This document shows, piece after piece, positions 16,455-59,096 of a stretch of DNA of 64,000 nucleotides. This stretch comes from an uncultured Chloroflexia bacterium (GTDB taxonomy: Bacteria > Chloroflexota > Dehalococcoidia > GIF9 > UBA5629). The notes beneath the pieces are model-generated. The model saw only the letters and a program-made list of their open reading frames with translations. It was not told the origin of the DNA and did not search any database. Both the position numbers and the translations under genes were made by a program. Where the stretch lies: the NCBI GenBank assembly GCA_963754385.1, contig CAVWGE010000001.1, forward strand, positions 328,575 to 392,574. The letters are read 5' to 3'. Position 1 is the stretch's first letter. Every line of letters begins with the position of its first letter.

Positions 16455-16477
16455 GGTTCCTCCTATCGGAATTTAAT

Positions 16478-22623: not shown

Positions 22624-22668
22624 AGAAAAAAACCAAGAGCTTTAGTAACCACTACTAAACCCTTGGTC
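22624..22668 (-). terminator. Intrinsic terminator serving as the expression platform of the thiC TPP riboswitch
   Basis: On the minus strand an imperfect long hairpin (ACCAAGGGTTTAGTAGTGGTTACTAAAGCTCTTGGT) is followed by a TTTTTTT run. The RBS AGGAGA and the ATG follow the U-tract. Confidence 0.65.
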
Positions 22669-22675
22669 AAATTTA

Positions 22676-22773
22676 CCGCTTCCCTACGCTTGCATTACCA
22701 AGGTCAGGTTCTGACGGTTCTCCGCGATAGCAGAGTCTCAGCCTGGATTGTTTCCTCCGGGCACCCCCAGCGG
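22676..22773 (-). ncRNA. TPP (THI-box) riboswitch aptamer upstream of thiC
   Basis: Minus-strand sequence is CCGCUGGGGGUGCCCGGAGG...GCUGAGA...GAACCUGACC...GGUAAUGCAAGCGUAGGGAAGCGG. It contains the conserved GGGGUGCC, CUGAGA and ACCUGA blocks plus a closing P1 (CCGCU/AGCGG). Confidence 0.85.
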
Positions 22774-22849
22774 TTAACTAAAACCTCTATTCAATATAAC
22801 ATATAATAACACCAAGAAACAAGCAAGGCTTAATTGAATCTGTTACTTA

Positions 22850-24472: not shown

Positions 24473-24600
24473 TAATTCTGCCTTTTCTGAAGATTTTATC
24501 GCTGGAAGCATAGTTTATATTGCCCTGGAGAAAAAATCAAATCTAGCCTTGAAAGGTGGCATCTAATTGTTGGCTTGTCCAAATATGCGAAGTAACTGGC

Positions 24601-24673: not shown

Positions 24674-24750
24674 GGCCCCGTGGTGTAGCGGACTAACATG
24701 CCACCCTGTCACGGTGGAGATCGTGGGTTCGAATCCCATCGGGGTCGCCA
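24674..24750 (+). tRNA. tRNA-Asp (anticodon GTC), CCA encoded
   Basis: Manual cloverleaf: acceptor GGCCCCG/CGGGGTC, D-arm GTGT/ACAT, anticodon stem CCACC/GGTGG with loop CTGTCAC, T-arm GTGGG-TTCGAAT-CCCAT, discriminator G, then CCA. Confidence 0.88.
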
Positions 24751-24883: not shown

Positions 24884-26482
24884 TTAACCCAGATTTCGCA
24901 ATTCTGCTCTTAGCACCTTGCCCAAAAGGTTTTTGGGCAATGACTCCATAAATAGCACTTTTTTCGGTACCTTAAAGGTGGGCAGGTGTTTCTTACAAAA
25001 GGCGATTATTTCTTCCTCGCTGGCTTGTTCTCTTGGTTCAAGAACCACGAAAGCCTTTATCTCTTCTCCGTAAACCTTATCAGGTATGCCGATTATCCCT
25101 GCTTCGACAATCTTGGGATGTTGGCAAAGAATCTCCTCCACTTCTCTTGGTGATACGTTTTCTCCTCCCCTGATGATTAAATCTTTCTTGCGGTCGGTGA
25201 TGTAAACGTAGCCCTCTTCATCTATATAGCCTATATCGCCTGTGTAAAGCCAGCCGTCCTTCATGGTTTGGGCCGTATCCTCGGGCAGCTTCCAATAACC
25301 CTTCATTGCTGTAGGGCCTTTGACTACGATTTCGCCTTGCTGTCCTGGCGGAAGCTCGCGACTGTCATTGTCGAAGACTTTAATGGTATTGCATTTTAAT
25401 AAACACTTGCCTACAGAACCGTACTTAGGCGGGAGGTCAGCTGGCTGTCCTGTGGTAATAGCTCCTGACTCGGTTAGACCCCAGCCTTCCCTTATGTCGA
25501 CACCTGTCTTTTGTTTCCACCTCAGTGCTACCTCCACGGGAAGTGCCGCTCCCCCAGAATTGCAGTCTTCGAGTGAACTCAAATCGTACTCATCAAGGTC
25601 GGGGTAGTCCAGCATCTGGATATACATGGTGGGCACTGCTGCCATGTGAGTAACCCGGAATGCCTGGATGCTCTTCAGTGCTTCCTCAACATTCCACCAC
25701 TTGAGCACAATTGCCCTTCCACCTACAAAATAGCCTGTATTGCTGAACGCAATGCCATACGAGTGAGACAGGGGCAGCACTCCCATGCTAACCATAGTCC
25801 GGTTAACACCGGTAACGCATTGAGTTGCCTCGATTGGTTTAAGTGTTTTGGGGTCTATGGACTGGCTTGTTTGGCGTAGGGTCATTGGGCGGTGGATAAG
25901 GATATATTCATAGAATGACAAGGCATTGATGTAGAGGGAATAGTGGGTGTGCATTACCCCCTTAGGTTTTCCTGTGGTACCTGCGGTATATAATAGAGCG
26001 GCAACGTCGTCATTGTCTGTCTCTTCTATTACAAGGTCATCTGAGCTAGCTGACATAAGCTCACGATATGGGATGGTGCCAGGAGCGTCGTCTCGGTCGG
26101 TTAATAGGATGTGTTTTAAAGTTGGGACCTGGCTTTGTGCATCCTTAATCCAGTCCAGATAATCAGAACTGGTCAGGATAGCTTTTGCTCCACAGTCATG
26201 GTATATGTAGGAGGCTTGGTCAGGCCTCAGCAATGGGTTCAATGGCACGACTATACCACCTATCTTATATATGGCGGGGAAAGCCGAGAATACCGGTGGG
26301 CTATTGGGCATCTGTACTACTACTCGATCCCCTCTGCCGATGCCGAGTGCCTTGAGTGCATTGCCCAATCGATTAGCGTTGCGATTTGCCTCGGTATTGG
26401 TATACCATTTCCCCTCGAAGTGGACACTTTCGTATTCGCCGAACCTCTTGATGTTATCTTCGATGAGACTGCCGATGTTCAT
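24884..26482 (-). CDS. AMP-dependent synthetase/ligase (acyl-CoA synthetase family)
   Basis: A 532-aa protein with the AMP-binding motif YTAGTTGKPKGV and the C-terminal linker motif GEIVVKG. Confidence 0.9.
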   Translation of the reverse strand: MNIGSLIEDNIKRFGEYESVHFEGKWYTNTEANRNANRLGNALKALGIGRGDRVVVQMPNSPPVFSAFPAIYKIGGIVVPLNPLLRPDQASYIYHDCGAKAILTSSDYLDWIKDAQSQVPTLKHILLTDRDDAPGTIPYRELMSASSDDLVIEETDNDDVAALLYTAGTTGKPKGVMHTHYSLYINALSFYEYILIHRPMTLRQTSQSIDPKTLKPIEATQCVTGVNRTMVSMGVLPLSHSYGIAFSNTGYFVGGRAIVLKWWNVEEALKSIQAFRVTHMAAVPTMYIQMLDYPDLDEYDLSSLEDCNSGGAALPVEVALRWKQKTGVDIREGWGLTESGAITTGQPADLPPKYGSVGKCLLKCNTIKVFDNDSRELPPGQQGEIVVKGPTAMKGYWKLPEDTAQTMKDGWLYTGDIGYIDEEGYVYITDRKKDLIIRGGENVSPREVEEILCQHPKIVEAGIIGIPDKVYGEEIKAFVVLEPREQASEEEIIAFCKKHLPTFKVPKKVLFMESLPKNLLGKVLRAELRNLG

Positions 26483-26644
26483 GGTTCCACTTTCTACAAT
26501 TCCCGCATTTTTTAGCTGGGAATGAGGTTGTTTGCGGTTTTATTGCTTTGGAGATTGATAGTACACCTGTGGCTTTTAGACGTCAAGCGCATATCTTTAA
26601 TTATATTTTTTCATCGGCGAGTTTGTTTGTGTGGTGTCTAGAGT

Positions 26645-26673
26645 TTGACAGGATACGGGGCCTGTGGTAGATT
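26645..26673 (+). promoter_or_regulatory. Candidate sigma70 promoter (TTGACA-N17-TAGATT) for the HMGCS-like/thiolase/SDR module
   Basis: Reads agagtTTGACAggatacggggcctgtggTAGATTgcc, about 40 nt upstream of the ATG at 26715. Confidence 0.45.
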
Positions 26674-26714
26674 GCCTGTTGGCAAATAAACGCTGATTTC
26701 ACGAGGTTCAATTA

Positions 26715-28157
26715 ATGGTAGGTATCAAATCATACGGAGCTTATATCCCGCGATATCGAATGAACCACAATACTATCTTCTTGGCTGTTGGATTTTTGGG
26801 TACATTTCCTGCACCTGGGGAGAATGCAATTGCAAACTATGATGAAGATACGCTTAGTATGGCAGTAGCTGCTGGTATTGACTGCTTGAGTGGTATGAAA
26901 CGGGAAAAGGTGGACGGCTTATATCTTGCAACTACCAGTCAGCCTTACATGCTGCGACAAAATTCTGCCATTGTAGCTACGGCTCTCGACCTACAGCCTG
27001 GCATAAGAACAGCTGACTTTACTGGCTCTGCAAAAGCGGGGACTAGTGCTTTACTCTCTGCTTTTGATGCCGTAAAGGGTGAAACATCCAGCAGTGTCCT
27101 GGTCTGTACTTCCGACTGCCGGTTAAGCAAGCCAGGTAGTTCTCAGGAACCTTTGTATGGTGATGGTGCAGCAGCTCTCCTTGTAGGAAGTGATGATGTG
27201 ATTGCTACCTTTGAAGGTTCTTATTCTGTGTCATATGATTTTCCCGACCGCTGGAGAGCAGCAGGAGAGAAATTTGAGCGTGCCTGGGAGGACAGGTTCA
27301 TTCGTGATGAGGGCTATGCAAGAGTAATTCCTGAGATAATCTCAGGGCTGTTGAAGAAATATAATCTGAACATCAATGACTTTGCTAAAATAGCGTACCC
27401 AGGCCTTTATGCCAGGGAACATGGTGCGATAGCAAAGCGTCTGGGTGTCGAGCCAAGTCGGATTCAAGATACCTTGCTTGATAAAATAGGTGATACCGGT
27501 TCGGCTTCGCCTTTAATGATGCTGGCAGCAGCGCTTGAAGATGCTAAGCCAGGAGACAAGATTCTGGTTGCCAGCTTCGGGAATGGCGGCGATGCTCTGT
27601 TTTTTCAAGTGACTGAGAAGATAAAGGGGTTGGCAGATAGGCGAGGAGTCAAGAAAAATCTAGCGTCGAAGAAGGAACTTTCTAGCTATGAGAAATATCT
27701 TGCTTTCCGAAATCTAGCACCAATGGACTTAGGTATGCGTGGCGAGGAAAGCGTTCGTACTCCGATGTCCACTCTGTTCAGGGAACGCAAGTCGATTTTA
27801 TCGCTTTGCGGTTCGAAATGTAAACGCTGTGGCACTCCTCAGTACCCTGCTCAGAGAGTATGTGTGAACCCGGATTGTGGAGCTGTTGATGAGATGGAAA
27901 GTTATCGCTTCTCAGACAAGAATGGTGTTCTATTCACCTATACTGGTGATAACCTTGCCGCTAGTATCGACCCGCCGGCAATCTATGGCATTATAGATTT
28001 TGAAGGTGGCGGTAGATTTTGGTTTGACCTCACTGATTGTGACCTTGACTCGGTTAAGGTGGGCATGCCGGTGCAGATGACATTCCGTAGGAGATATGTT
28101 GATGAGGCCAGTGGAGTTTATGGTTACTCTTGGAAGGCAACACCGATACGTGCCTGA
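26715..28157 (+). CDS. Fusion protein with an N-terminal HMG-CoA synthase-like (thiolase-superfamily) domain and a C-terminal DUF35 Zn-ribbon/OB-fold domain. The HMGCS-like domain appears non-catalytic.
   Basis: The N-terminus MVGIKSYGAYIPRYR is the archaeal-HMGCS hallmark. The C-terminal ~130 aa carry CGSKCKRCG...CVNPDCG (a rubredoxin-like zinc ribbon) plus the DUF35 OB-fold. Aligned from memory to S. aureus MvaS, Glu79 is Thr (ATTS versus ATES) and Cys111 is Ala (GSAKAGT versus EACYAAT). Confidence 0.8.
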   Translation: MVGIKSYGAYIPRYRMNHNTIFLAVGFLGTFPAPGENAIANYDEDTLSMAVAAGIDCLSGMKREKVDGLYLATTSQPYMLRQNSAIVATALDLQPGIRTADFTGSAKAGTSALLSAFDAVKGETSSSVLVCTSDCRLSKPGSSQEPLYGDGAAALLVGSDDVIATFEGSYSVSYDFPDRWRAAGEKFERAWEDRFIRDEGYARVIPEIISGLLKKYNLNINDFAKIAYPGLYAREHGAIAKRLGVEPSRIQDTLLDKIGDTGSASPLMMLAAALEDAKPGDKILVASFGNGGDALFFQVTEKIKGLADRRGVKKNLASKKELSSYEKYLAFRNLAPMDLGMRGEESVRTPMSTLFRERKSILSLCGSKCKRCGTPQYPAQRVCVNPDCGAVDEMESYRFSDKNGVLFTYTGDNLAASIDPPAIYGIIDFEGGGRFWFDLTDCDLDSVKVGMPVQMTFRRRYVDEASGVYGYSWKATPIRA

Positions 28158-28187
28158 AGCAAACGAATAAATACGGAAGAGATAGAA

Positions 28188-29390
28188 ATGGCAGAAGGTA
28201 TAAAAGACAAGGTGGCTATCATAGGCATGGGCTGCACGAAGTTTGGCGAGTTGTGGGATAAGGGTGCTGAGGACCTGATGGTCGATGCATTCAAAGAATG
28301 CATCGAGGATGCCGGCGTAGAAAAGAAGGATATTCAGGCTGCCTGGTTTGGTATACATTTTGAAGAGCAGAGTGTAGGAAAGGGAGCTACACCTTTGGCA
28401 TTGACGCTGAAGTTGCCTTTTATCCCGGTAACTAGGGTAGAAAACTTTTGTGCTACCGGTACAGAAGCCTTGAGAGGAGCTTGTTATGCTGTGGCTTCTG
28501 GGGCCTATAATATTGCTTTGGCTTTAGGCGTGGAAAAGCTTAAGGATACCGGGTATGGTGGTCTTCCTGGGTTTCGTAATCTGATGGGAGCCAAAAATGC
28601 GCTAATCATGCCCAAGTTGACTGCCCCGGGCTGTTTTGCCATGATGGCTACCAGATATTTTGCTGTCTATGGTTTGAGCCCGGATGAGGGCAAGAGGATG
28701 CTGGCCAAGGTATCAGTTAAAAGTCATCATAATGGTTCTTTGAATCCGAAGGCACACCTGCGCCGCGAGGTCACCGAAGAGCAAGTAATGAATGCCCCCA
28801 TCATTGCTTGGCCGCTTGGGCTTTTTGACTGCTGTGGGGTTAGTGATGGTTCTGCGGCAGCCATTGTTACCAGAGCTGACATGGCTAAAAATTTTAGACC
28901 TGACCCAGTTTACATCAAATCTTTACAGGTTGCTCTAAGTTCGGGCGAGGAGTTGATGTACACGAATTGGGATGGTGCCCATGTTGAAACTGGGTATCGT
29001 GCTGGGGTCCTAGCTTATAATGAGGCAGGAATAAAGAACCCACGTAAAGAGGTAAGCATGGCTGAAATACACGATTGTTTCTCTATTACTGAAGCGGTAA
29101 CTATGGAGGATTTGCAGTTTAGCCCCAGAGGACGGGTTAAGGATGATATCGAGGCTGGTCGTTTTAACCTGGATGGTGAACAGCCTATTCAGCCAGATGG
29201 CGGATTGAAGTGTTTCGGGCATCCTATCGGTGCCTCTGGCCTGAGGATGATGTATGAGATGTATAAACAGCTGCAAGGTAAAGCTCAACAGCCGGAGCGA
29301 CAGTTGAAGAATCCTAAGATTGGGTTAACGCATAACATGGGTGGCTTCCCAGCCATGAACGTTGTTAGTGTTGCCATCGTAGGCCTGTGA
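28188..29390 (+). CDS. Thiolase, SCP-x/archaeal acetoacetyl-CoA thiolase-like
   Basis: A 400-aa protein starting VAIIGMGCTKFGE. The nucleophile Cys sits in ENFCATGTEAL and the C-terminal motif is GHPIGASGLRM. Confidence 0.9.
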   Translation: MAEGIKDKVAIIGMGCTKFGELWDKGAEDLMVDAFKECIEDAGVEKKDIQAAWFGIHFEEQSVGKGATPLALTLKLPFIPVTRVENFCATGTEALRGACYAVASGAYNIALALGVEKLKDTGYGGLPGFRNLMGAKNALIMPKLTAPGCFAMMATRYFAVYGLSPDEGKRMLAKVSVKSHHNGSLNPKAHLRREVTEEQVMNAPIIAWPLGLFDCCGVSDGSAAAIVTRADMAKNFRPDPVYIKSLQVALSSGEELMYTNWDGAHVETGYRAGVLAYNEAGIKNPRKEVSMAEIHDCFSITEAVTMEDLQFSPRGRVKDDIEAGRFNLDGEQPIQPDGGLKCFGHPIGASGLRMMYEMYKQLQGKAQQPERQLKNPKIGLTHNMGGFPAMNVVSVAIVGL

Positions 29391-29447
29391 TACAAATTTA
29401 ACGAAATGTTAATATGTAAATTAAGATAAAAAAGGAGAAGTCAAAAG

Positions 29448-30356
29448 ATGGGTGATAGGTTAAAGGACAGAGTAGCTATAGTTACTGGCTCGGGTCAAGG
29501 AATTGGAAGAGCCATAGCAGTAGCCTTGGCTGAAGAAGGTGCCAAGGTAGTGACTAACAACCGTCGGCCAGATACTCCAGGTGGAGATGCTGGAACTACA
29601 GCTAAGCAGATTACAGATATGGGTGGTCAGGCTATGCCTTTCTTCGGTAGCGTCTCTGATTTTGAGCTGGCTGGCAAACTGATACAGGCGACAGTGGACA
29701 AATTTGGCAGGCTGGACATATTGGTGAACAATGCCGGTGCTGACCGACCCCACATGGTCTGGAATATGACGGAAGAGGAATGGGATACGTGCGTGGACTC
29801 CTTTCTTAAAGGCACCTTTAACTGTACTAGATTTGCCTGTGGCGTAATGAGAGAACAAAAGTGGGGGCGGATAATAAATACCACTTCTACTGCCTGGCTA
29901 GGTGCCGTAGGACACTGCAATTATTGCGCCGCTAAGGCTGGTATCGTAGGCCTAACCAGAGGTGTAGCCAGGGAGATGGGCAGATATGGAGTGACCTGCA
30001 ATGCCTATGCTCCAACCGCGGCAACACGGTTTACACTTAGTGAGGACGTAGTGGCTGGTTTCAAAAAAAGGTTAGAAACAGGGCTTATAACCAAGGAGAG
30101 ATACGAAGAGCTGACCAACCCACCCAGCCCGGAAACAGTAACTCCTTTCATACTTTATCTCTGCGCTGAAGAGGCGGCTGACATAAACGGGCAGATGTTT
30201 GATGTCACCGGCGGTAATATCGCCATTTACTCAGAGCCGGTAAAGAAGAAGACCATCACTAAAAAAGAGGGCTTGTGGACGATAGAAGAGTTGGTAGAAC
30301 TGGTGCCAAAGGTATTACTGGAAGGATATAGTAATCCTTCACCGCCTCAGCAGTAA
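29448..30356 (+). CDS. Short-chain dehydrogenase/reductase (SDR) family oxidoreductase
   Basis: Carries TGSGQGIGRAIA (the Rossmann TGxxxGIG motif), NNAG and YCAAKAG (YxxxK). Confidence 0.9.
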   Translation: MGDRLKDRVAIVTGSGQGIGRAIAVALAEEGAKVVTNNRRPDTPGGDAGTTAKQITDMGGQAMPFFGSVSDFELAGKLIQATVDKFGRLDILVNNAGADRPHMVWNMTEEEWDTCVDSFLKGTFNCTRFACGVMREQKWGRIINTTSTAWLGAVGHCNYCAAKAGIVGLTRGVAREMGRYGVTCNAYAPTAATRFTLSEDVVAGFKKRLETGLITKERYEELTNPPSPETVTPFILYLCAEEAADINGQMFDVTGGNIAIYSEPVKKKTITKKEGLWTIEELVELVPKVLLEGYSNPSPPQQ

Positions 30357-30371
30357 GCTATTGACATATTA

Positions 30372-30380
30372 TGATATAAT
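30372..30380 (+). promoter_or_regulatory. Extended -10 promoter element (TGaTATAAT) upstream of the ABC transporter operon
   Basis: Reads attgacatattaTGaTATAATtttt. The TTGACA at 30361 is too close (8 nt) to act as the -35. Confidence 0.3.
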
Positions 30381-30572
30381 TTTTGTATCCCCCCAGGGGC
30401 TTGTTTGATTCCTCTCGACTTTGTTATGAACCAGCGCGATATGTGCGCAATAAAAACTTGGTGGAAGGAGGTGGTAGTATCGAGTGACTATAACTTTGGG
30501 TGCTGGCGGAGGCAATTTATGGTCGAAGAGCGCTTGCCAGCGGAAATATAATCAAGACTATAAAGGAGGTTA

Positions 30573-32417
30573 ATGGCTGAAGTGAAAAAATTTTTATTTT
30601 TGTTTTTTACCTGTCTTTTGTTGGTGGCATTTGTGCTTCCTGCCTGTGCTGCGCCTGCTGCGGAAAACGTCATAAAAGTCGGTATTATTGGGCCAATGAC
30701 ATTCCCGGAAGGTGAGCATCAGTGGATGGGAGCCCAGCTGGGAGCCAAGAAGGTCAATGATGGCGGTGGCATAAAAATAGGCGACAAAACGTATACCATC
30801 CAATTGATCAAGGCGGACGACAACGAAGTGCTAAGCACTACGGACGCGGCTGCAGCCATGGAAAAACTGATAACTGTGGACAAGGCGGACTTTATATATG
30901 GTGGCTTCAGGACAGAAGCTGTATACCCCATGCAAGACGTAGCTATGAACTACAAGAAGATATTCTTCGATTATGGGGCTGCTACAGCGGCGCTCTGTGG
31001 TAAGGTAAGTGAGGATTACGACCACTACAAGTACTTCTTCAAAGGGACTCCATTCAACGAGTACTATCTGGTCAATAATATTTTCATGGTTACGGCTATG
31101 GTTAATGACCAACTCAAAAAGGAGCTGAATATAGACCATGTTAAGGTCGCTATAATAGCCGAGAAACTAGAGTGGGCCGAAGCGATGGTAGCTATTGCCG
31201 AGGCACAGCTGCCGGAAATGGGAATGGAGGTAGTCGGCACGTGGAGACCGTCAGATACAGCCACAGATGTCAGTGCTGAGCTGACAGCCATCGCAGCTAA
31301 AGAGCCGCAGATGATTTTCTGCATATTCTCCGGTCCGGTAGGCATCACTTTTGCAAAGCAGCAAGTGGAGTTAGATGTACCCGCCTGTTCCCTAGGTATT
31401 TTCGTCGAAGCACAGAAAAGCGCCTTCATGGAGGCAACAGGTGGCAAGGGTCTATATTTTACTACGTTGAATACCTACACAAGGGAAGTTGCATATAATG
31501 ACCTGACCCAACCCTTCGTCACTGAATTCGTGAATACATATAACCAAGTCCCGCTATATACTGCTGCTACCTATGATGGTATGTTGCTTCTAAAGACTGC
31601 CCTGGAAAAGGCGCAAAGCTTGGATGCCGATACTTTAGTCCCGGTTATTGAAGAGACATCGTCGCCGATTACAGCTGGTAAGGCAGCCTACTATAAGCTG
31701 GGCGATGATTGTCCCCCAAACTGTGCACATGACCTGGTGTACGGCCCCGGTTATGTGACCGGCGTCTGCACTCAATGGCAGAGTACTGACCCAATCATGG
31801 GGTCGAAGGCTATCTGGCCGCAGTCTTATACAGGTGTGCCTGATGAGTGGAAAGATTTAAAGTATGGGGGGACATATCCATACGTGATACCGCCTAACGT
31901 AATCGCGAAGTTCAAGCAAGAAGGGGCACCAGCCCCACCACCAGCACCGCCGGCTCCACCACCGGCACCACCGGCGGGCGGGCTATCGTTTGAGGCTGCT
32001 GAATATACCAATGCTGAGCTTGGTTTCTCCGTCAAGTACCCTAAGGATTGGGCACAGCAGCCATCGGAGGACGTATTGTTCTACGCTGCAGCTCCGAAAA
32101 AAGTTCCACTTTTATTCGTTGATGCTAAGGAAGGTGCTACCTTTACTGAAGCGCTCACAAAATCACTGGAGGCAGTTGGTGGCAAAAACGTTAAAATGAA
32201 GCCTGAGAGTGAGATAACTCTGGCAGATGGTACTAAAGCCATCCAGGCTATAGGCAAGTTCAGTCATCCGGCCGCTCCAGTGGCAATGGACATCTTGTCT
32301 GTAGGAGCGATGAAGGACAATAAGTGGGTTATCGTTACGGTGGCTACTGTAGGGATGCTGGCAAAGTTCGATGAAGCCAAGTTTTCGGAAATAGCCCGTA
32401 CATTGCAATTCAAGTAG
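30573..32417 (+). CDS. Substrate-binding lipoprotein of a Liv-type ABC transporter (periplasmic binding protein type I), carrying a Pro/Ala-rich linker and an extra C-terminal domain of about 150 aa
   Basis: ATG follows TAAAGGAGGT. The signal peptide has a lipobox (LPAC). A LivK-like body runs to about aa 450, then APAPPPAPPAPPPAPPAGG, then a C-terminal domain (FSVKYPKDWAQQ...). Confidence 0.85.
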   Translation: MAEVKKFLFLFFTCLLLVAFVLPACAAPAAENVIKVGIIGPMTFPEGEHQWMGAQLGAKKVNDGGGIKIGDKTYTIQLIKADDNEVLSTTDAAAAMEKLITVDKADFIYGGFRTEAVYPMQDVAMNYKKIFFDYGAATAALCGKVSEDYDHYKYFFKGTPFNEYYLVNNIFMVTAMVNDQLKKELNIDHVKVAIIAEKLEWAEAMVAIAEAQLPEMGMEVVGTWRPSDTATDVSAELTAIAAKEPQMIFCIFSGPVGITFAKQQVELDVPACSLGIFVEAQKSAFMEATGGKGLYFTTLNTYTREVAYNDLTQPFVTEFVNTYNQVPLYTAATYDGMLLLKTALEKAQSLDADTLVPVIEETSSPITAGKAAYYKLGDDCPPNCAHDLVYGPGYVTGVCTQWQSTDPIMGSKAIWPQSYTGVPDEWKDLKYGGTYPYVIPPNVIAKFKQEGAPAPPPAPPAPPPAPPAGGLSFEAAEYTNAELGFSVKYPKDWAQQPSEDVLFYAAAPKKVPLLFVDAKEGATFTEALTKSLEAVGGKNVKMKPESEITLADGTKAIQAIGKFSHPAAPVAMDILSVGAMKDNKWVIVTVATVGMLAKFDEAKFSEIARTLQFK

Positions 32418-32438
32418 TAAGTGATTTAGCGTTTGAGT

Positions 32439-32478
32439 GAGTACCCCCGGGTTGCTTGAAATAGCCCCGGGGGTACTC
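32439..32478 (+). other. Stable intercistronic stem-loop (13-bp perfect GC-rich stem) between the binding-protein and permease genes
   Basis: GAGTACCCCCGGG (32439-32451) pairs with CCCGGGGGTACTC (32466-32478). There is no U-tract. This is typical of a differential mRNA-stability element or partial terminator in an ABC operon. Confidence 0.55.
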
Positions 32479-32525
32479 AAAAGTGCGTAAAGAAATTTGT
32501 TAAGCAATACAAATTGGTATAAACC

Positions 32526-33398
32526 ATGATTCAGGCATTTGTAATTCAGATGCTGGTAACAGGTGGGATATATGCCATGCTGGCTGTTGGCTTCGCACTT
32601 ATCTTTGGTGTAGCCCGAATGATAAACCTGGCACATACCTCGTTCCTGATGCTGGCAGCCTACGGTATGTTTTACTCCACTTATAGACTTGGTTTAGACA
32701 TTATCCCAGCGATAGCCATATCACTTGTCGGTACCACATTCATAGGTGTAGCGAGTTACAAGTTATTCATTGACCGGATACGCGAGCATCAGGTAACCGT
32801 GATGCTGGTAACCATTGCTCTTGCTATAGTTTTCCAGGAATGCATGCTTTTAGCCTTTGCTGCTCACTTTCGTGAGGCCCCGCTTCTTATCAAGGGGTTC
32901 GTGGAGATAGCGGGTGTGAGGATTACCAACGAACAATTACTGACGCTGGCTGTGGTCCTGGTTGTATTGATTGGCATATGGGCGCTTTTGTCAAAGACAA
33001 AATTGGGAATTGCTATTCGAGCCACCGCTCAGGATACTGAAATCGCTAATCTTATGGGGATAAGCGTTTCTAGGATACTCTTGATAACTATGGGCATGGC
33101 TACGGCATTGGCGGCAGTTGCTGGCATTGTGGTGGCTCCGCTATGGGTTGTTTTCCCCTATATGTGGCTAAATCCATTGGTAACAGTTATGGCGATCGTT
33201 GTCTTAGGTGGCTTGGGGAGTGTTAAGGGTAGTCTCATCGGCGCCTTTATCATATCGTTCGTTCAAACAGCGGTTGTATTCTTCCTCCCTGGAGGCGCCT
33301 TCCTGAATACGGCTTTTGCCTTGCTGGTTATGGTAATAATACTTGTAGTCAGACCTGAAGGTCTGTTCGGCGTGGTTTTTGAAGAGGAGAGATTATAA
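32526..33398 (+). CDS. livH: Branched-chain amino acid-type ABC transporter permease (LivH family)
   Basis: A 290-aa polytopic protein with typical LivH topology and N-terminus (MIQAFVIQMLVTGGIYAMLAVGFALIFGV). Confidence 0.88.
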   Translation: MIQAFVIQMLVTGGIYAMLAVGFALIFGVARMINLAHTSFLMLAAYGMFYSTYRLGLDIIPAIAISLVGTTFIGVASYKLFIDRIREHQVTVMLVTIALAIVFQECMLLAFAAHFREAPLLIKGFVEIAGVRITNEQLLTLAVVLVVLIGIWALLSKTKLGIAIRATAQDTEIANLMGISVSRILLITMGMATALAAVAGIVVAPLWVVFPYMWLNPLVTVMAIVVLGGLGSVKGSLIGAFIISFVQTAVVFFLPGGAFLNTAFALLVMVIILVVRPEGLFGVVFEEERL

Positions 33399-34436
33399 TT
33401 GTTAAGGCGGCTGTTTAAGGATTTCCAGGGTGACGTGCTGGCTATTCCAGGCAGGCTTATCGCCCTTATTTTCTTTTTACTTTTGTTTCTTTTACCTCTG
33501 ATAACACAAGAACCTTACACCCTTCGCATTCTGATTCTTGCCAATGTTTTCGTTATTTTCGCTGTTAGCTGGGACTTTATATCCGGCTATACGGGACAGA
33601 TAAACTTCGGTCATGCCCTGTTCTTTGGTGCTGCGGCCTACAGTACAGCTTTGCTAGGTAAATACCTTGGTTTACAGCCCTGGCTGACTATACCGATTGG
33701 GGCTATTGTTGCCGTAGGAGCTGGGATGCTTATGTGTCTGCCGGCATTAAGGCTGAGAGGCCCTTATTTGTCGCTGGTGACTTTAGCTTTTCCCCTCATT
33801 TTGCTTGGTGTCATCAAGGCTTTTCCTGATGTTACTGGCGGTGAACATGGTATTTCTGGTCTACCCGCACTTTCTGATTCTCGAGTAGTTGAATACTACA
33901 TAGCTCTGCCTATCATGATTGTTTCCGTGCTCATAATGTGGAAGCTTACCGATGCCAAAAGTGCTCTTGTCAGGACAGGCATCATTCTTCATGCCATCCG
34001 TGAAGATGAGATTGCGGCTCGTGCCAGTGGAATCAACACCATAAGATATAAGATGTTCGCTTTCGCCGTAGGTGGTTTCTTTGCCGGGGTTGCCGGCGGT
34101 TTATACGCTCACTTTTTGAGAATCGCTGGTCCATCAAGTCTCGACATGATGCTGTCATTCCAGGCAATAATATGGACGGTTTTTGGCGGCATTGTCAGCA
34201 TTTATGGCGCAGTGGTTGGGGTTTACATTCTGTATCCTCTGATGGAATTCTTGCGGGTTATCCCTGAGTTAAGGATTCTGATTTTTGCAGCTATAGTAAT
34301 AGTTATTCTTCTCTTTATGCCCGAGGGGATTGCGGTTTGGATAAGAGACAAAATTGAGCGCGAGTGCCCTCGTTGCAAGTTAACTAATGTGGCTTGGCGT
34401 CGTACCTGTAGAGCCTGTGGCGCTTCTCTGTACTGA
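33399..34436 (+). CDS. livM: Branched-chain amino acid-type ABC transporter permease (LivM family) with a C-terminal CxxC...CxxC zinc-ribbon tail
   Basis: TTG start abuts the livH stop. A LivM-like TM core is followed by a cytoplasmic tail ECPRCKLTNVAWRRTCRACGASLY. Confidence 0.85.
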   Translation: MLRRLFKDFQGDVLAIPGRLIALIFFLLLFLLPLITQEPYTLRILILANVFVIFAVSWDFISGYTGQINFGHALFFGAAAYSTALLGKYLGLQPWLTIPIGAIVAVGAGMLMCLPALRLRGPYLSLVTLAFPLILLGVIKAFPDVTGGEHGISGLPALSDSRVVEYYIALPIMIVSVLIMWKLTDAKSALVRTGIILHAIREDEIAARASGINTIRYKMFAFAVGGFFAGVAGGLYAHFLRIAGPSSLDMMLSFQAIIWTVFGGIVSIYGAVVGVYILYPLMEFLRVIPELRILIFAAIVIVILLFMPEGIAVWIRDKIERECPRCKLTNVAWRRTCRACGASLY

Positions 34437-34449
34437 GCGAAGTCAGGTT

Positions 34450-35199
34450 CTAAAGACCTAGATATGTCTTTCTGATAGTCTCGTCTTTTAGTAATTCTTT
34501 AGCTGTTCCCTGGGCGATTATGTGTCCCCGGGACATAACGTAGCTTCTTCTTGACAGGTCGAAAGCGAAGCTGATGTCTTGCTCGGCCAGTAGTATGGTA
34601 ACACCCAGCTCGTGATAAATTTCCTCTATGCGCTTAAACAGGTCTTCTTTGAGCCTTGGTGCCAGTCCACTTGAAGGCTCATCAACTAACATGAACTTGG
34701 GCTTACGCATTAGTGCCCTACCTATAGCCAGCATTTGGCGTTCCCCCCCAGATAACGTCCCCGATACTTGGTTTTGTCTGTCCTTCAGCGTTGGAAACAA
34801 TTCGTAGACCTTGTTGAGACTATCGTTGACTACCTTCTTATCCTTAACCAGATAAGCGCCGGCTAGCAAGTTATCCTTGACCGTCATTTCAACAAACGGT
34901 CTGCCTCTCTCGGGGCAAAGGAGCAAGCCTCTCTTGGCTATTTCAGAGGCGGAGAGTTTTTCAATTCTCTCGCCTTCGAACTCTATACTGCCTTTAAAGG
35001 TTATGTCTGCCTGCCTTGTCCCCTTTGATACCTCCTTCTCCCAGTTTATCAATCCTGCTATAGCTCGTAGCAGTGTCGTTTTTCCGGCGCCGTTGGGACC
35101 GACGAGCCCGACTAATTCGCCTTTTTCAACCATAAGGCTGGCGTCATCTAATACCATAGCTGTGTCATAAGAGACGGTCACATCTTTTATTTCAAGCAA
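34450..35199 (-). CDS. livF: ABC transporter ATP-binding protein (LivF family)
   Basis: Walker A GPNGAGKTTL, signature LSGGERQ. I chose TTG at 35199 (protein MLEIKDVTVSYD...), preceded by AAGGAGGTG. The ORF-track start at 35229 is also TTG and lacks an RBS. Confidence 0.8.
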   Translation of the reverse strand: MLEIKDVTVSYDTAMVLDDASLMVEKGELVGLVGPNGAGKTTLLRAIAGLINWEKEVSKGTRQADITFKGSIEFEGERIEKLSASEIAKRGLLLCPERGRPFVEMTVKDNLLAGAYLVKDKKVVNDSLNKVYELFPTLKDRQNQVSGTLSGGERQMLAIGRALMRKPKFMLVDEPSSGLAPRLKEDLFKRIEEIYHELGVTILLAEQDISFAFDLSRRSYVMSRGHIIAQGTAKELLKDETIRKTYLGL

Positions 35200-35962
35200 T
35201 GAGCACCTCCTTACCCGTGTAGGCTTCAATCACCTGCTTATTCTTAGATATTTCTTCAGGTGTGCCTTGGGTGAGGACTTCACCAAAGTTAATTACAATC
35301 ACCCTGTTAACTATCTTCATCAGTTCACTAAGCTTGTGTTCTATGATGAGCATAGCTGGACCTTCGCTGTGAAGTCTGCCGAATCTTCCGCCCTTGTGCA
35401 ATCTTCTCATCGACTTGGCAACAAGCTCTGTTTCTGCTGGATTTAGGCCGCCGAACGGCTCATCGAGGATAAGCAGCTCCGGTTCGGTGGCAATTGCCCT
35501 GGCAACCTCCAGCCTTTTTAAATCACCGTGCGACAGAATGGAAGCCGGTTCGAGAGCCATGTCAGCGATACCGACGAACTCTAAAGCATCTCGTGCTTTT
35601 ACTTCGACTCTTTTGACCCATTCGCCACGCTTGGTTATCCGTGGGCAGAGACAACCTACCATAACATTGGCAATAATTGGCAGATGGCGGAATGGCTTGA
35701 CTACCTGAAAAGTCCCTACCATACCCCTTTGCACGATCTCCCAGGGGCGGCGTTTAGTTATATCTTCGCCATTAAATAGGACTTTTCCTGAATCAGGTTT
35801 TAATATGCCGAGTATGCATCGGATAAGGGTAGTTTTTCCGGCGCCATTGGGGCCAATGAGACCAACGATTTCGTCCCTTTCTATCTTGAAGCTTACGTTG
35901 TTGACAGCAAGCAGTCCGCCAAAGCGTTTGGTTAAATTTTCAACCTCGAGAAACGGTACCAT
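35192..35962 (-). CDS. livG: ABC transporter ATP-binding protein (LivG family)
   Basis: Starts MVPFLEVENLTKRFGGLLAVNNVSF, Walker A GPNGAGKTT. ATG follows a GGGAGGAGG RBS. Confidence 0.9.
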   Translation of the reverse strand: MVPFLEVENLTKRFGGLLAVNNVSFKIERDEIVGLIGPNGAGKTTLIRCILGILKPDSGKVLFNGEDITKRRPWEIVQRGMVGTFQVVKPFRHLPIIANVMVGCLCPRITKRGEWVKRVEVKARDALEFVGIADMALEPASILSHGDLKRLEVARAIATEPELLILDEPFGGLNPAETELVAKSMRRLHKGGRFGRLHSEGPAMLIIEHKLSELMKIVNRVIVINFGEVLTQGTPEEISKNKQVIEAYTGKEVLIA

Positions 35963-35963
35963 T

Positions 35964-37679
35964 TTACAGGTCCTCCTCCCTCAGCTCACGGCGTGATACC
36001 TTGCCGACATCCGTCTTAGGCACCTCCCCCCTGAACTCTACAATTTTGGGACATTTGTAGTGGGCTATCCTTTCAGCGCAATATTTCATAATTTCCTCTT
36101 CTGAGACTTTGCCTCTTGCCTCCGTTTCCAGAACAACAATCGCTTTAACTTTTTCCCCAACTTCCGGGTCTGGGATTCCGATGACACCGGCCTCTTTAAC
36201 CTGTGGGTGGCTGGCTAATACTTCTTCTACTTCGCGAGCAAATACAGCCAGCCCTTTATACTTAATCATATCTCTTTTTCTATCATAGAAATAGAAGTAG
36301 CCTTCCTCATCCATTCTGACTAAATCGCCGGTTCTGACCCATCTCTCACCGTCAATTTCTACAAACATTTTCTTCGTTTCATCAGGATTTTTCCAGTAGC
36401 CTTTCACCACTTCTGGCCCCTTTATTGCCAGTTCGCCTATCTCACCGACGGGGAGAAACTTGACACTTTCAGAGTCAAGTATGGCGCCTACAGTGTTAGA
36501 TAATGGTACACCAAAAGAGCCGTATTTTGGTCTCCCGTATGGGCTGACCATCCCAATTGAGGTGGTCTCGGTCATACCCCAACCTTCGTGGATTTTAGCA
36601 CCTGTCCGCTTTTCCCAACCTGTTGCGGTATCTTCAAGAAGGGCATCGGCGCCGGAGACGAGCACCTTTATTCGCTTCCAATTGACTCTGTCGGTGCGGT
36701 GATAATCTCTGAGGTATTCGTACAGAGACGGGACGCTGTAGAAAATGGTTGCCTTGTAACTTTCAATAGAGTTCAAGATGTCGTCAAGGTCTGGAGTGGT
36801 AAATATAACCAGTGTATAACCCTGCGATAGTGACCCTAGCATAACTACAGCCTGACCGTAGATATGGTAAAACGGCAAGTAGGCTAATACGATTTCCTTG
36901 CCCTCCTGAACGATGTCACCCCAGAATTTCTCAGTCAGGTAACGGGCAGCAGTAATATTGTAGTGGCTTATCATAGCCCCCTTGGGCAGCCCTGTTGTGC
37001 CTCCGGTGTATTGAAGTGTTACCAAGTCCTCTTTAATGTTGTATTCAACTTTCGGCGGATTCGGTGGGTAGTTCTTTATCAAGTCCTGTAATTGATAGAA
37101 TCCCTCTCTTTCGAAGAGCTCGGCAGGTGGCACTGCCATCTTTTGATATACAGCTCGGAGCACACTGCTGCCCAGGAACTTTTTCATGCCTGGCAGGTAC
37201 TCAGAAATACTAGTTAAGATGACCTTATCTAGCTTGACTCCTGTCCGCTCAAAATTGTCGTAAAGAATATCCTGACAGACGATGATTCTGGCTCCGCTGT
37301 CTTCAAGTTGGTGTTTGATCTCAGGGCTGACATAAACAGGGCTGATCGCGGTTAGCGTAGCTCCAGCTTTCAGTGCTGCGAAATAAGCTATAATGAATTG
37401 AGGCGAGTTCAGGAGGAGTAAAGCAACCCGGTCTCCCTTTTTGACACCTAAATCATGCAGGGCTGTGGCAAATCTATCGACGTGGTCTCTTAACTCGCTA
37501 TAGCTTATCTTCTTGCCGTAAAATACTATAGCGGTTCTGTCCTTCCATTTATCCGTGGCTTCATCAAATGTGTCGACCGCAGACTTTTGCGGGATTTCAA
37601 CATCTGGCGGTACCTCTTTGAGATAAAACTTCAACCATGGTCTTGATTCATATTTTGCTTTGTTCGGATTCGCTGCCAT
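35964..37679 (-). CDS. AMP-dependent synthetase/ligase (long-chain-fatty-acid--CoA ligase-like)
   Basis: Start at the ATG at 37679 (MAANPNKAKYESRPW...), preceded by AGGAGGTGA. The ORF track extends to a TTG at 37718. AMP-binding motif LQYTGGTTGLPKGA. Confidence 0.9.
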   Translation of the reverse strand: MAANPNKAKYESRPWLKFYLKEVPPDVEIPQKSAVDTFDEATDKWKDRTAIVFYGKKISYSELRDHVDRFATALHDLGVKKGDRVALLLLNSPQFIIAYFAALKAGATLTAISPVYVSPEIKHQLEDSGARIIVCQDILYDNFERTGVKLDKVILTSISEYLPGMKKFLGSSVLRAVYQKMAVPPAELFEREGFYQLQDLIKNYPPNPPKVEYNIKEDLVTLQYTGGTTGLPKGAMISHYNITAARYLTEKFWGDIVQEGKEIVLAYLPFYHIYGQAVVMLGSLSQGYTLVIFTTPDLDDILNSIESYKATIFYSVPSLYEYLRDYHRTDRVNWKRIKVLVSGADALLEDTATGWEKRTGAKIHEGWGMTETTSIGMVSPYGRPKYGSFGVPLSNTVGAILDSESVKFLPVGEIGELAIKGPEVVKGYWKNPDETKKMFVEIDGERWVRTGDLVRMDEEGYFYFYDRKRDMIKYKGLAVFAREVEEVLASHPQVKEAGVIGIPDPEVGEKVKAIVVLETEARGKVSEEEIMKYCAERIAHYKCPKIVEFRGEVPKTDVGKVSRRELREEDL

Positions 37680-37886
37680 TGTGTCACCTCCTGCTTTGCT
37701 GGAAGCAAAGCATACCACATTATCTGTATTCTGGCAATGTAGGAATGTGTGCGGTTGTGCTATTTGATTAATTGAGAAACCTACCCCTAATTGATTTTCC
37801 GCCCTTCACAGAGTTACTCCGACGGTAGCTATGATTGACCTTCTAATTATGAGCCGGCTGGCATATAGAGCCATTAATATATAAAG

Positions 37887-37915
37887 GTGACAGTTTGCTT
37901 TTTTCACAGTATAAT
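37887..37915 (+). promoter_or_regulatory. Candidate sigma70 promoter (GTGACA-N17-TATAAT) for the lipoprotein gene
   Basis: Reads aagGTGACAgtttgcttttttcacagTATAATcaagc, about 40 nt upstream of the GTG at 37957. Confidence 0.4.
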
Positions 37916-37956
37916 CAAGCAGATTGTTTAAGAAATTACACCACAAGGAGGTTAGA

Positions 37957-38454
37957 GTGAGGAATAGCAGAAAATATTGTCTTCTACTTCTGGGGCTTAT
38001 TAGCTTGTTGATTAGCTCCATCGTTGCTTGCGGTATGCCTGGTTTCACTACATATACCAATGATAAGGCTGGGTATACCATCAGCCATCCAGTAAATTGG
38101 AATGTTGAGGTGTCTGCAGACGGGACAAAATGCCTCATAACGTCTCCTACACGCCAAGGTTCAATCATGATAGATGTTGTGGAAGGCGTGACAGCTAGAG
38201 AAGCTGCCCAGCGCTGGCTTATTTCCATCGGAACTACCTGGAGCGAAGTGGTAAAACCTGAAGATAAGCCGATGAAGGGCTCTTGGGACTGGTATCTTTC
38301 TTATGATTATGAGACAAACTTTGGTACGTTTCATGGGGAAGCTTACTTTAAGCAGACGGAGACACACGTGTATAAATTAGACACGGCAGGGCTTAAACAA
38401 GAGTATTCCACCTATCCTTTTAATACAATGATATCGTCATTCAAGTTGCAGTAG
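37957..38454 (+). CDS. Hypothetical lipoprotein. Its fold resembles the C-terminal domain of the 30573..32417 binding protein.
   Basis: GTG start follows an AAGGAGG RBS. The ORF track starts at a TTG at 37924. Signal peptide with lipobox LLLLGLISLLISSIVAC. The mature part contains GYTISHPVNWNVEVSADG. Confidence 0.6.
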   Translation: MRNSRKYCLLLLGLISLLISSIVACGMPGFTTYTNDKAGYTISHPVNWNVEVSADGTKCLITSPTRQGSIMIDVVEGVTAREAAQRWLISIGTTWSEVVKPEDKPMKGSWDWYLSYDYETNFGTFHGEAYFKQTETHVYKLDTAGLKQEYSTYPFNTMISSFKLQ

Positions 38455-38556: not shown

Positions 38557-38630
38557 TCGGGGTGGCCGGATTTGAACCGGCGACCACCTGAACCCCATTC
38601 AGGTGCGCTACCAGGCTGCGCTACACCCCG
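38557..38630 (-). tRNA. tRNA-Pro (anticodon GGG)
   Basis: Minus strand: CGGGGTG-TA-GCGC-AGCCTGGTA-GCGC-A-CCTGA-ATGGGGT-TCAGG-TGGTC-GCCGG-TTCAAAT-CCGGC-CACCCCG-A. The anticodon loop has GGG at positions 34-36. No CCA is encoded. Confidence 0.88.
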
Positions 38631-58906: not shown

Positions 58907-58912
58907 AAGAAA

Positions 58913-58941: not shown

Positions 58942-58995
58942 TTCAAACAAAGAATCTGAGACGGAAGCTTTGTAGAGCTACAATCTTTTATCATA

Positions 58996-59020: not shown

Positions 59021-59096
59021 GACTTAAAGGCCTCACTTGTAGACTAGTATACCATATGGTTGCCTGACAATGCAATGTCTCTGGCAACAAAAATTG

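Follow-up and report, generated by a model that had tools for sequence, protein, structure and literature searches.

The window analysed here, a stretch of 64,000 nucleotides (nt) from a Dehalococcoidia genome, carries a ten-gene locus (24884-37679) that combines a Liv-type ATP-binding cassette (ABC) importer, two acyl-CoA ligases and a short thiolase operon. We consider it likely that this Dehalococcoidia locus was inherited vertically and serves to scavenge an organic acid by import, CoA activation and shortening of the beta-oxidation type. Such a pathway is of an ordinary kind, and the general design of importer, CoA ligases and beta-oxidation genes is already well known. Its one unusual part is the thiolase, which is paired with a dead, scaffold-like relative of hydroxymethylglutaryl-CoA synthase (HMGS). 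An earlier note on this DNA had proposed an uptake, CoA-activation and beta-oxidation-like pathway for an organic acid in a Dehalococcoidia-like genome. The genome is indeed that of a member of the Dehalococcoidia, and the proposed pathway found support in the gene neighbourhoods of related genomes, in the type of acyl-CoA dehydrogenase (ACAD) and in the types of the two ligases.

According to the mechanism that we propose, a Liv/HAAT-type importer consisting of a lipoprotein binding protein, two permeases and two ATPases would bring the acid into the cell, and two FadD-like ligases would form the acyl-CoA; one of these ligases appears to be co-transcribed, and is probably translationally coupled, with the ABC ATPases. 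The first oxidation would probably be carried out by an alpha/beta ACAD pair encoded 7 kb upstream, and the hydratase would come from elsewhere in the genome. The plus-strand operon would complete an (R)-specific turn of beta-oxidation by supplying its last two enzymes, a 3-hydroxyacyl-CoA dehydrogenase of the MFE-2 type and an SCP2-type thiolase, the latter being held on the dead HMGS-like/DUF35 fusion as scaffold or CoA-binding partner. Complex formation, the thiolytic direction, the coupling of import to activation and an acid rather than an amino acid as substrate are what we infer from the data given below.

Gene assignments are based on open reading frame (ORF) calls and on Pfam and NCBIfam profile searches; the Pfam scan was directed at window ORFs of at least 110 amino acids (aa), and the 44 long, non-nested ones were scanned. 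All coordinates are relative to the window. The ten genes form three transcription units, which are ACS1 (minus strand), a plus-strand series (26715-34436) and a minus-strand operon (37679-34450):

24884-26482, minus: ACS1, FadD-like AMP-forming acyl-CoA ligase, 532 aa (Pfam AMP-binding and AMP-binding_C), divergent from the thiolase operon
26483-26714, no strand: divergent intergenic region, 232 bp, with promoter-like sites for both transcription units
26715-28157, plus: fusion of an HMGS/KASIII-like domain with DUF35, 480 aa (Pfam ACP_syn_III_C, zf-ChsH2 and OB_ChsH2_C)
28188-29390, plus: SCP2-type thiolase, 400 aa (Pfam Thiolase_N and Thiolase_C_1)
29448-30356, plus: short-chain dehydrogenase/reductase (SDR), 302 aa, with C-terminal extension (Pfam adh_short)
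30573-32417, plus: Liv/HAAT-family substrate-binding lipoprotein, 614 aa (Pfam Peripla_BP_6, residues 34-363)
32526-33398, plus: LivH/UrtB-like permease (Pfam BPD_transp_2; NCBIfam UrtB/LivH below cut-off)
33399-34436, plus: LivM/UrtC-like permease (Pfam BPD_transp_2; NCBIfam LivM below cut-off)
34450-35199, minus: LivF-like ABC ATPase, 249 aa (Pfam ABC_tran; NCBIfam LivF/UrtE), convergent with the permease genes
35192-35962, minus: LivG-like ABC ATPase (Pfam ABC_tran and BCA_ABC_TP_C; NCBIfam LivG)
35964-37679, minus: ACS2, FadD-like acyl-CoA ligase, 571 aa (Pfam AMP-binding), first gene of the ACS2-ATPase-ATPase operon

ORFs and domains agree with the positions at which the earlier note had placed these genes. 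Its assignment of all five transporter genes to the plus strand had to be corrected, since three of them lie on the plus strand and the two ATPase genes on the minus strand. The end coordinate 37679 is the true start of ACS2: the ATG is preceded by a ribosome-binding site (AGGAGGTGA), and homologue N-termini and independent gene calls (571 aa) agree. Within the co-oriented minus-strand operon, 1 nt separates the ACS2 stop from the start of the LivG-like ATPase gene and the two ATPase genes overlap by 8 nt. For the LivF-like ATPase we adopted the 249-aa start given by an independent gene call in the related locus L077; the longest ORF begins at 35229. On the plus strand, the second permease gene abuts the first with zero gap, and the SDR and binding-protein genes are 216 bp apart.

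Sites matching the promoter consensus, and no more than that, were seen in the divergent intergenic region on both strands (TTGACA-17-TAGATT at 26645-26673, plus; TTGACG-17-TACTAT at 26586-26558, minus) and ahead of ACS2 (37737-37709, minus). When we aligned this intergenic region with those of relatives in search of a conserved operator, promoter-like blocks alone were conserved, namely GGTTTGACA and CGTCAAG/GATRGTAC. The Pfam scans revealed no regulator gene in the window, as the earlier note had stated.

The thiolase and its HMG-CoA synthase-like partner

The fusion protein comprises an HMGS-like part (residues 1 to about 340) and a DUF35 zinc-ribbon/OB part (residues about 355-480). In searches against the Protein Data Bank (PDB), PhlA (9skh, 5m3k; top hit) and archaeal HMGS (6esq_I) matched the N-terminal half about equally well (E ~1e-35). 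The HMGS and PhlA matches covered residues 2-333, and that of the DUF35 chain 6esq_E covered residues 355-478. Residues E82, C114, H238 and N270 of 6esq_I align with T74, A106, P229 and D260 of the fusion, so that the whole catalytic tetrad is replaced. Among 67 full-length homologues (36-90% identical), the Glu, Cys and His were kept in none and the Asn in five. The zinc-ribbon cysteines C369, C372, C383 and C388 are invariant in the homologues, apart from an Ala at C388 in a single sequence. Median identity of the homologues amounts to 79%, and because both halves are highly conserved (median 78% and 83%), the protein appears to be under strong constraint and not in decay. Judged by these residues, it is a constrained non-catalytic module rather than a decaying gene, and we propose that it serves as non-catalytic scaffold of the thiolase. 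The gene that the earlier note labelled HMGCS-DUF35 does encode such a fusion, but its HMGS part, with E, C, H and N all replaced, would be a dead scaffold and not an enzyme.

An exact-sequence look-up of the fusion protein returned no record, and no paper was found in the literature that combines Dehalococcoidia, thiolase and DUF35. The closest named metagenome-assembled genome (MAG), BS750m-G42 from the Black Sea, carries two paralogous fusion genes, which are 90% (L001, JADHXB010000008.1) and 76% (L038, JADHXB010000079.1) identical to that of the window; L numbers denote loci from the genome scan described below. In L045, three fusion-type genes are present on one 8-kb contig. Multiple pairs of pseudo-HMGS-DUF35 and thiolase per genome seem to be common.

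A thiolase/HMGS/DUF35 complex that makes HMG-CoA for the mevalonate pathway, as in archaea, would be consistent with best matches that include all three 6esq chains and the NCBIfam HMGS model PRK04262, and with public annotations, which label homologues of the fusion 'hydroxymethylglutaryl-CoA synthase'. However, both HMGS models scored below their cut-offs (PRK04262 226.8 bits vs. 244; another model 150.7 vs. 353), the Glu, Cys and His are lost family-wide, and the archaeal enzyme loses its activity when the four equivalent residues are mutated (PMC12960953). Moreover, the window holds the genes dxr (10307-11476) and ispG (8203-9255) of the methylerythritol phosphate (MEP) pathway and no mevalonate-pathway genes. 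We regard a role in mevalonate synthesis as extremely improbable and rejected it on account of the lost tetrad and of the MEP genes.

The thiolase passed the cut-off of the NCBIfam model PRK06157 (624.6 bits, cut-off 403). Its best PDB match was the archaeal acetoacetyl-CoA thiolase 6esq_A (E 3.5e-58), and BbsB (7pxp_C, E 1.6e-36) and PhlC (E 9e-20) were matched as well. C88 (motif CAT; CxS/T family-wide), H295-D-x-F (HDCF) and G344-H345 are invariant in 69 homologues, and the enzyme is therefore predicted from its residues to be catalytically competent.

These thiolase data also bear on a Friedel-Crafts C-acyltransferase of a secondary-metabolite pathway, similar to PhlACB or MucABC. This possibility arises from PhlA, the top PDB match of the HMGS-like domain, which likewise lacks the tetrad. 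However, the thiolase retains the His of HDxF that is lost in PhlC and MucB (PMC12960953), it is far nearer to the archaeal acetoacetyl-CoA thiolase (201 bits) than to PhlC (75 bits), and no polyketide synthase (PKS) or nonribosomal peptide synthetase (NRPS) domains were seen in the window or in the scanned neighbours of related loci. A Friedel-Crafts acylase is very improbable and was rejected because HDxF is kept and PKS/NRPS domains are lacking.

A bacterial counterpart has recently been characterized. The ACAT/HMGS-DUF35 complex of Pseudomonas fluorescens (Nat Commun, January 2026) cleaves acetoacetyl-CoA and makes neither acetoacetyl-CoA nor HMG-CoA, and its authors considered it an evolutionary intermediate without a defined pathway (PMC12960953). 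It is from the data on this complex only that we infer, by analogy, that the thiolase and the fusion of the window would form a physical complex and would carry out thiolysis without Claisen condensation.

Proposed activation, import and remaining beta-oxidation steps

Both ligases are FadD-like. For ACS1, the best NCBIfam match was the long-chain-fatty-acid--CoA ligase model PRK06187 (461.7 bits, just below the cut-off of 476), and its best PDB matches were FadD13, malonyl-CoA synthetase and 4-coumarate ligases. ACS2 was closest to FadD-1 of A. fulgidus (3g7s) and reached no NCBIfam cut-off. The acetate--CoA ligase model PRK04319 gave 236 bits for ACS2 (cut-off 729) and was not in the top 25 matches of ACS1. 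The two proteins are FadD-like, score below the cut-off of every equivalog and do not match the models of acetyl- or propionyl-CoA synthetases; a grouping with such housekeeping enzymes would have spoken against the earlier proposal. No ligase substrate can be read from these matches, since no NCBIfam equivalog cut-off was reached and there are fatty-acyl, malonyl, coumaroyl and benzoyl ligases among the PDB neighbours.

The importer set is complete by Pfam, with a Peripla_BP_6 binding protein, two BPD_transp_2 permeases and one LivG- and one LivF-type ATPase. All its genes remained below the NCBIfam equivalog cut-offs (LivJ/H/M/G/F, Urt), and consequently no substrate class can be assigned. 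The binding protein carries a conserved lipobox-like LPAC motif, and its AlphaFold2 (AF2) model (mean predicted local distance difference test, pLDDT, 90.9) has a LivJ-like fold. Against PDB sequences, it gave a single marginal match. In Rhodopseudomonas palustris, Liv-type (COG0683) binding proteins whose annotation names branched-chain amino acids have in most cases fatty, dicarboxylic or aromatic acids as ligands, and the genes of these proteins adjoin pimFABCDE or coumarate ligase genes (PMC3223731).

The C-terminal 145 aa of the binding protein (31980-32414), which follow a Pro/Ala-rich linker, form an extra PsbP/Mog1p-like domain. Its AF2 model has a pLDDT of 97, Foldseek matched it to CyanoP (2xb3, TM 0.73), and it resembles MTC28, Apa and LpqN of M. 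tuberculosis as well as DcrB. Binding-protein homologues with this domain have about 600-640 aa and those without it about 440 aa. A stand-alone gene for linker and PsbP-like domain adjoins the binding-protein gene in L027 (14997-15680), L032 (15012-15683) and L043 (16916-17584).

All five transporter genes belong to the Liv/HAAT family, and this is one of the grounds on which an amino-acid substrate has to be considered. The Liv system might import branched-chain or other amino acids, and the enzyme module might finish the breakdown of the 2-methyl-branched acyl-CoA derived from them, as in the conversion of isoleucine via 2-methylacetoacetyl-CoA to acetyl-CoA and propionyl-CoA. SCP2-thiolase and MFE-2-type enzymes are peroxisomal specialists for 2-methyl branches, which counts in favour of this route, as do three related loci (L024, L028, L037) with a 2-oxoacid:ferredoxin oxidoreductase and a class-III aminotransferase before the thiolase operon. 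On the other hand, the locus is flanked by two acyl-CoA ligases, one of them in the ATPase operon, and such ligases are needed for free acids only. In the window, the Pfam scans detected neither a transaminase nor an oxoacid oxidoreductase, and the aminotransferase of L024 belongs to class III and not to the branched-chain class IV. We consider import of amino acids unlikely.

The SDR retained S-Y-x3-K and matched the (3R)-hydroxyacyl-CoA dehydrogenase of yeast MFE-2 best (2et6, E 6.5e-70); 17beta-HSD4 and BbsD also matched. The end of beta2 (residues ~35-41) has the sequence VVTNNRR; with two Arg and without an Asp, this signature is NADP-like. Two SDRs of related loci, SDR259 and SDR310, carry an NAD-type Asp (VFVSD, VVVND), and the window SDR may therefore differ from them in cofactor preference and possibly in direction.

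For the first oxidation, the earlier note had pointed to a tandem ACAD pair at 15.3-17.7 kb. This pair is real (15321-17662) and is the likely supplier of the dehydrogenase step, as it is of the same alpha/beta type as the pairs of related loci:

16478-17662, minus: ACADa, candidate catalytic subunit of an alpha2beta2-type acyl-CoA dehydrogenase (Pfam ACAD domains)
15321-16454, minus: ACADb, candidate non-catalytic partner subunit (Pfam ACAD domains)

The best PDB matches of ACADa were the steroid alpha2beta2 ACAD subunits ChsE4 (4x28_A, E 3e-56) and Tcur3483, and the Glu at the position of ChsE4 E247 is retained (FERSG). ACADb matched Tcur3481 and has a Glu neither at the MCAD-type nor at the IVD/ChsE4-type position. 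The relatives' ACAD400 and ACAD377, to which ACADa and ACADb are 38% and 51% identical, show the same split of the catalytic Glu. From these residues, ACADa and ACADb resemble the two subunits of a ChsE4-ChsE5-type alpha2beta2 heteromer. The pair lies between rpsB and greA, and this position is kept in the relatives whose sequence extends to it, the edge of the locus there holding ACADa alone.

Heteromeric ACADs, MaoC hydratases, MFE-2-type SDRs and SCP2-type thiolases with DUF35 form a toolkit for 2-methyl-branched or bulky acyl-CoAs, which is used in peroxisomes, in steroid side-chain degradation and in the bbs pathway. By analogy, this combination suggests a 2-methyl-branched or bulky acyl-CoA as substrate of the window enzymes.

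Related genomes and the weighing of alternatives

Our genome scan yielded 76 loci, mostly from Dehalococcoidia MAGs, and in a few cases from Desulfobacteraceae, Bacillota, an actinobacterium and an archaeon. Adjacency of the thiolase could be assessed in 61 loci, upstream ACS1 in 55 and downstream content in 34 (at least 7.5 kb downstream). The thiolase gene directly followed the fusion gene in 57 of the 61 loci. An ACS1 homologue was found divergently upstream of the fusion gene in 22/55, mostly in close Dehalococcoidia relatives. Downstream of the thiolase, SDRs (26/34), an ACAD pair (24/34) and a hot-dog hydratase pair (FAS1_DH_region and MaoC, 21/34) recur. In its common Dehalococcoidia form, the locus reads ACS / fusion, thiolase, hot-dog, MaoC, SDR259, SDR310, ACAD400, ACAD377, which by its gene types would be a full beta-oxidation set. 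Thus, the catabolic proposal survived the neighbourhood comparison that the earlier note had suggested as a check, with hydratase, SDR and ACAD genes recurring after the thiolase.

The full ten-gene order of the window is also present in three other assemblies (L001, L077, L078). Three transporter arrangements were observed. In the first, which is that of the window, L001, L027, L032, L077, L078 and partly L030 and L043 take part. The second has the binding-protein and permease genes after the ACADs (L010, L011, L025), and in the third the transporter lies upstream of the fusion-thiolase pair in Desulfobacteraceae (L055, L066, L071). There, the order is ACS, permeases, ATPases, ACS-like gene, binding protein, fusion, thiolase and ACAD pair, with an additional crotonase in L066. 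The widely conserved core consists of ACS1, fusion and thiolase only; transporter and ACS2 are attached in some lineages.

In L077, every gene including that of the binding protein encodes a product 90-96% identical to that of the window. In L001, the values are 55% for the binding protein, 77% for the first permease and 89-95% for the products of neighbouring genes. The binding-protein cassette looks as if it had been replaced or had rapidly diversified between close relatives.

Further genes were seen next to some of the loci. In the lake-water MAG loci L010 (2247-9533) and L025, genes for a MarR regulator and for a flavoenzyme of the NMO/FabK family run divergently from the thiolase operon and are preceded by genes for three proteins of 334-404 aa with C-terminal 2x[4Fe-4S] motifs and for a QueG-like Fer4/HEAT protein. 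The oxidoreductase and aminotransferase genes of L024 (5783-9937; also L028, L037) lie on the same strand before a full beta-oxidation operon, the oxidoreductase having three subunits. After this operon (18706-20840 in L024; also L028, L037) we found a weak Met_synt_B12 match (the activation domain of B12-dependent methionine synthase) and an MttB-family methyltransferase.

Taken together, these data favour the scavenging of an organic acid, but several observations weigh against it. A minority of loci have the transporter attached, with a Liv-type binding protein downstream in 6/34. Among syntenic relatives, the genes between thiolase and binding protein are not constant: L027 and L032 have none, L030 has SDR259, L043 and L016 have hot-dog, MaoC and SDR259, and the window, L001 and L077 have a 302-aa SDR. 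The Foldseek matches of the binding protein, at 13-20% identity, include binders of aromatic acids, of urea, of amino acids and of pyroglutamate, a mixture that allows no ligand call. Six housekeeping genes separate the ACAD pair from the cluster. In agreement with the earlier note, neither Pfam nor tblastn with the relatives' MaoC and hot-dog proteins detected an enoyl-CoA hydratase, be it a crotonase or a MaoC/hot-dog gene, in the window; the pathway is incomplete there and the locus is not self-contained. The NADP-like N-N-R-R of the SDR would suit reduction better than oxidation, and archaeal DUF35-thiolase assemblies run in the condensing direction (bioRxiv 10.1101/2024.07.05.601840).

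As for the missing hydratase, we assume that it is encoded elsewhere in the genome of the window, because the second fusion locus of BS750m-G42 (L038) resembles the complete-set loci L035/L036. The chloride-channel gene upstream in L038 matches loci of the L035/L036 type, which hold the complete set.

The NADP-like signature and the condensing archaeal assemblies point to a possible biosynthetic direction, in which the thiolase-DUF35 scaffold and the SDR, with a MaoC protein from elsewhere, would be the bacterial counterpart of the archaeal fatty-acid synthase that is independent of acyl carrier protein (ACP), and would elongate imported or activated acids. In Sulfolobus, ketothiolase/DUF35, an SDR-type ketoacyl-CoA reductase and a MaoC dehydratase form such a synthase complex (bioRxiv 10.1101/2024.07.05.601840). 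The Dehalococcoidia operons contain the same types of component, and besides the NADP-like signature of the window SDR the MarR and NMO/FabK-family genes next door in L010 and L025 may be counted for this view. However, the relatives have ACAD pairs and NAD-type SDRs and not enoyl-CoA reductases of the medium-chain dehydrogenase/reductase (MDR) type, importer and ligases suit catabolism or assimilation, the sole characterized fused pseudo-HMGS complex was only thiolytic (PMC12960953), and DUF35 of the archaeal Saci_1120 type was reported to be restricted to archaea (bioRxiv 10.1101/2024.07.05.601840). Altogether, chain synthesis appears decidedly unlikely. We are just as sceptical of a special form of it, in which the dead-HMGS/DUF35 fusion would act as a hub on which thiolase, SDR and, in relatives, MaoC dock in the manner of the archaeal DUF35 synthase, the window variant condensing and reducing so as to elongate imported acids. 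In this variant the SDR is NADP-like, the operon lacks ACAD and hydratase genes, and a ligase is wired to the importer. If true, it would mean ACP-independent chain elongation in Bacteria.

It is also conceivable that there is no functional unit at all and that the conserved core of ACS1, fusion and thiolase merely adjoins an unrelated importer and a second ligase. The low frequency of the transporter-core link (6/34 loci downstream), the 216-bp gap between SDR and binding-protein gene and the lower identity of binding protein and first permease to those of L001 (55% and 77%, vs. about 90% for the neighbours) are in line with this. Against it, the association recurs in three arrangements and two phyla (window type, L010 type, Desulfobacteraceae), and ACS2 lies within the ATPase operon. 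A chance neighbourhood is likewise decidedly improbable, a shade more so than chain synthesis.

Organic-acid scavenging remains our preferred reading, and the chromosomal setting speaks for its vertical inheritance. On the upstream flank, rplT, pheST, proS, ispG, rseP, dxr, cdsA, frr, pyrH, tsf and rpsB are followed by the ACAD pair, and between this pair and the cluster lie greA, an agmatinase-family gene, speD, cinA, thiC, a gene for a TIG-domain protein and tRNA-Asp. Downstream we found tRNA-Pro, a peptidyl-prolyl isomerase gene, hom, thrC and folE. The GC content of the cluster (0.46-0.48) is like that of the flanks, and its tetranucleotide distance from the window average (0.0068) is within one standard deviation of that of all segments of this size (0.0066 +/- 0.0005). 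Synteny from greA to ACS1, which includes thiC, cinA and greA, and the junction between tRNA-Asp and ACS1 are kept in six relatives, and no integrase was found. The earlier note had called the cluster an island. In the sense of horizontal acquisition this term does not apply, because composition is flat, synteny with housekeeping genes is conserved and so is the tRNA-Asp junction; the cluster is a vertically inherited resident chromosomal locus.

Two tRNA genes, tRNA-Asp(GTC) (24674-24750, plus) and tRNA-Pro(GGG) (38557-38630, minus), bracket the cluster. Six relatives share the tRNA-Asp/ACS1 junction, which is therefore not the mark of a recent insertion. A thiamine pyrophosphate (TPP) riboswitch upstream of thiC (22664-22778, minus) and a PyrR-binding element upstream of a pyrR/pyrB/pyrC/carB operon (58906-59034, minus) scored above the Rfam gathering thresholds. 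Two large IPT/TIG (and Big_13) proteins, probably exposed at the cell surface, are encoded at 4234-5982 (plus) and 22850-24511 (minus), and conservation within the syntenic block is lowest for the latter (51-82% identity to relatives). The ORFs at 37806-38228 (minus), 37924-38454 (plus) and 47717-48751 (minus) gave no Pfam match at E <= 0.01. Of the overlapping two just beyond ACS2, the one on the plus strand (165 aa) is the likelier gene according to independent calls in L077.

Inference of a beta-oxidation potential in non-dehalogenating Dehalococcoidia goes back at least to 2013 (PMC3971608). As heterotrophic acid oxidation in these bacteria is already accepted, the gain from our interpretation is incremental. 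If it is true, the 'orphan' bacterial ACAT/pseudo-HMGS-DUF35 complexes acquire a pathway context, namely as thiolase of an (R)-type beta-oxidation operon. Among uncultured Dehalococcoidia from sediments, groundwater and anoxic water columns, this conserved operon occurs very widely, and its strong conservation amounts to about 80% identity. Our interpretation also corrects the frequent mis-annotation as 'hydroxymethylglutaryl-CoA synthase', which could falsely suggest a mevalonate pathway.

Comparison with known systems

The closest counterpart is the P. fluorescens ACAT/HMGS-DUF35 complex, with which the window shares a tetrad-less HMGS fused to DUF35, an adjacent SCP2-type thiolase with Cys, HDxF and GHx, and the lack of PKS/NRPS neighbours. 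This likeness is one of architecture and residues, and thiolytic activity is assigned by analogy. The two systems differ in phylum, and here and in the related genomes the pair is part of beta-oxidation operons with CoA ligases and sometimes an ABC importer. The archaeal thiolase/HMG-CoA synthase/DUF35 complex (6esq) has the same three modules, and its chains are best or near-best matches for all three. In contrast to the archaeal complex, the HMGS module of the window is dead and fused to DUF35, MEP genes are present and the likely role is degradative.

BbsAB, the benzoylsuccinyl-CoA thiolase of the bbs operon (7pxp; with BbsCD and BbsG), likewise combines DUF35 with an SCP2-type HDxF thiolase for beta-oxidation of a bulky acyl-CoA. 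It is accompanied by SDR and ACAD partners, and BbsD was among the matches of the window SDR. However, BbsA lacks an HMGS-like domain, and activation in the bbs pathway proceeds via a CoA-transferase and not via ligases; among the neighbouring genes scanned here, no CoA-transferase of this kind turned up.

Steroid side-chain degradation (ChsE4-ChsE5, ChsH1-ChsH2, Hsd4A, Ltp2) and the peroxisomal MFE-2/SCPx system share with the window or its relatives an ACAD heteromer with one catalytic subunit, an MFE-2-type SDR, a two-gene hot-dog hydratase (in the relatives) and an SCP2-type thiolase with DUF35. The similarity is at the level of families (E 1e-36 to 1e-70), DUF35 is here carried on the pseudo-HMGS and not on MaoC, and steroid-ring genes are lacking.

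The DUF35 fatty-acid synthase complex of S. acidocaldarius has ketothiolase, DUF35 and SDR in common with the window, and MaoC in common with the relatives (bioRxiv 10.1101/2024.07.05.601840). It is synthetic and works with an MDR enoyl-CoA reductase, whereas ACADs, ligases and importer point to degradation in our case. For the coupling of uptake to activation, pimFABCDE with its Liv-type ABC transporter and couAB/CouP of R. palustris (PMC3223731) are the nearest parallels, since there too the genome couples a Liv importer with a CoA ligase and with beta-oxidation, in their case of fatty, dicarboxylic or aromatic acids. The thiolase, hydratase and dehydrogenase of the R. palustris systems are of other types, and the locus described here differs from them in its PsbP-like domain and in the ligase gene inside the ATPase operon.

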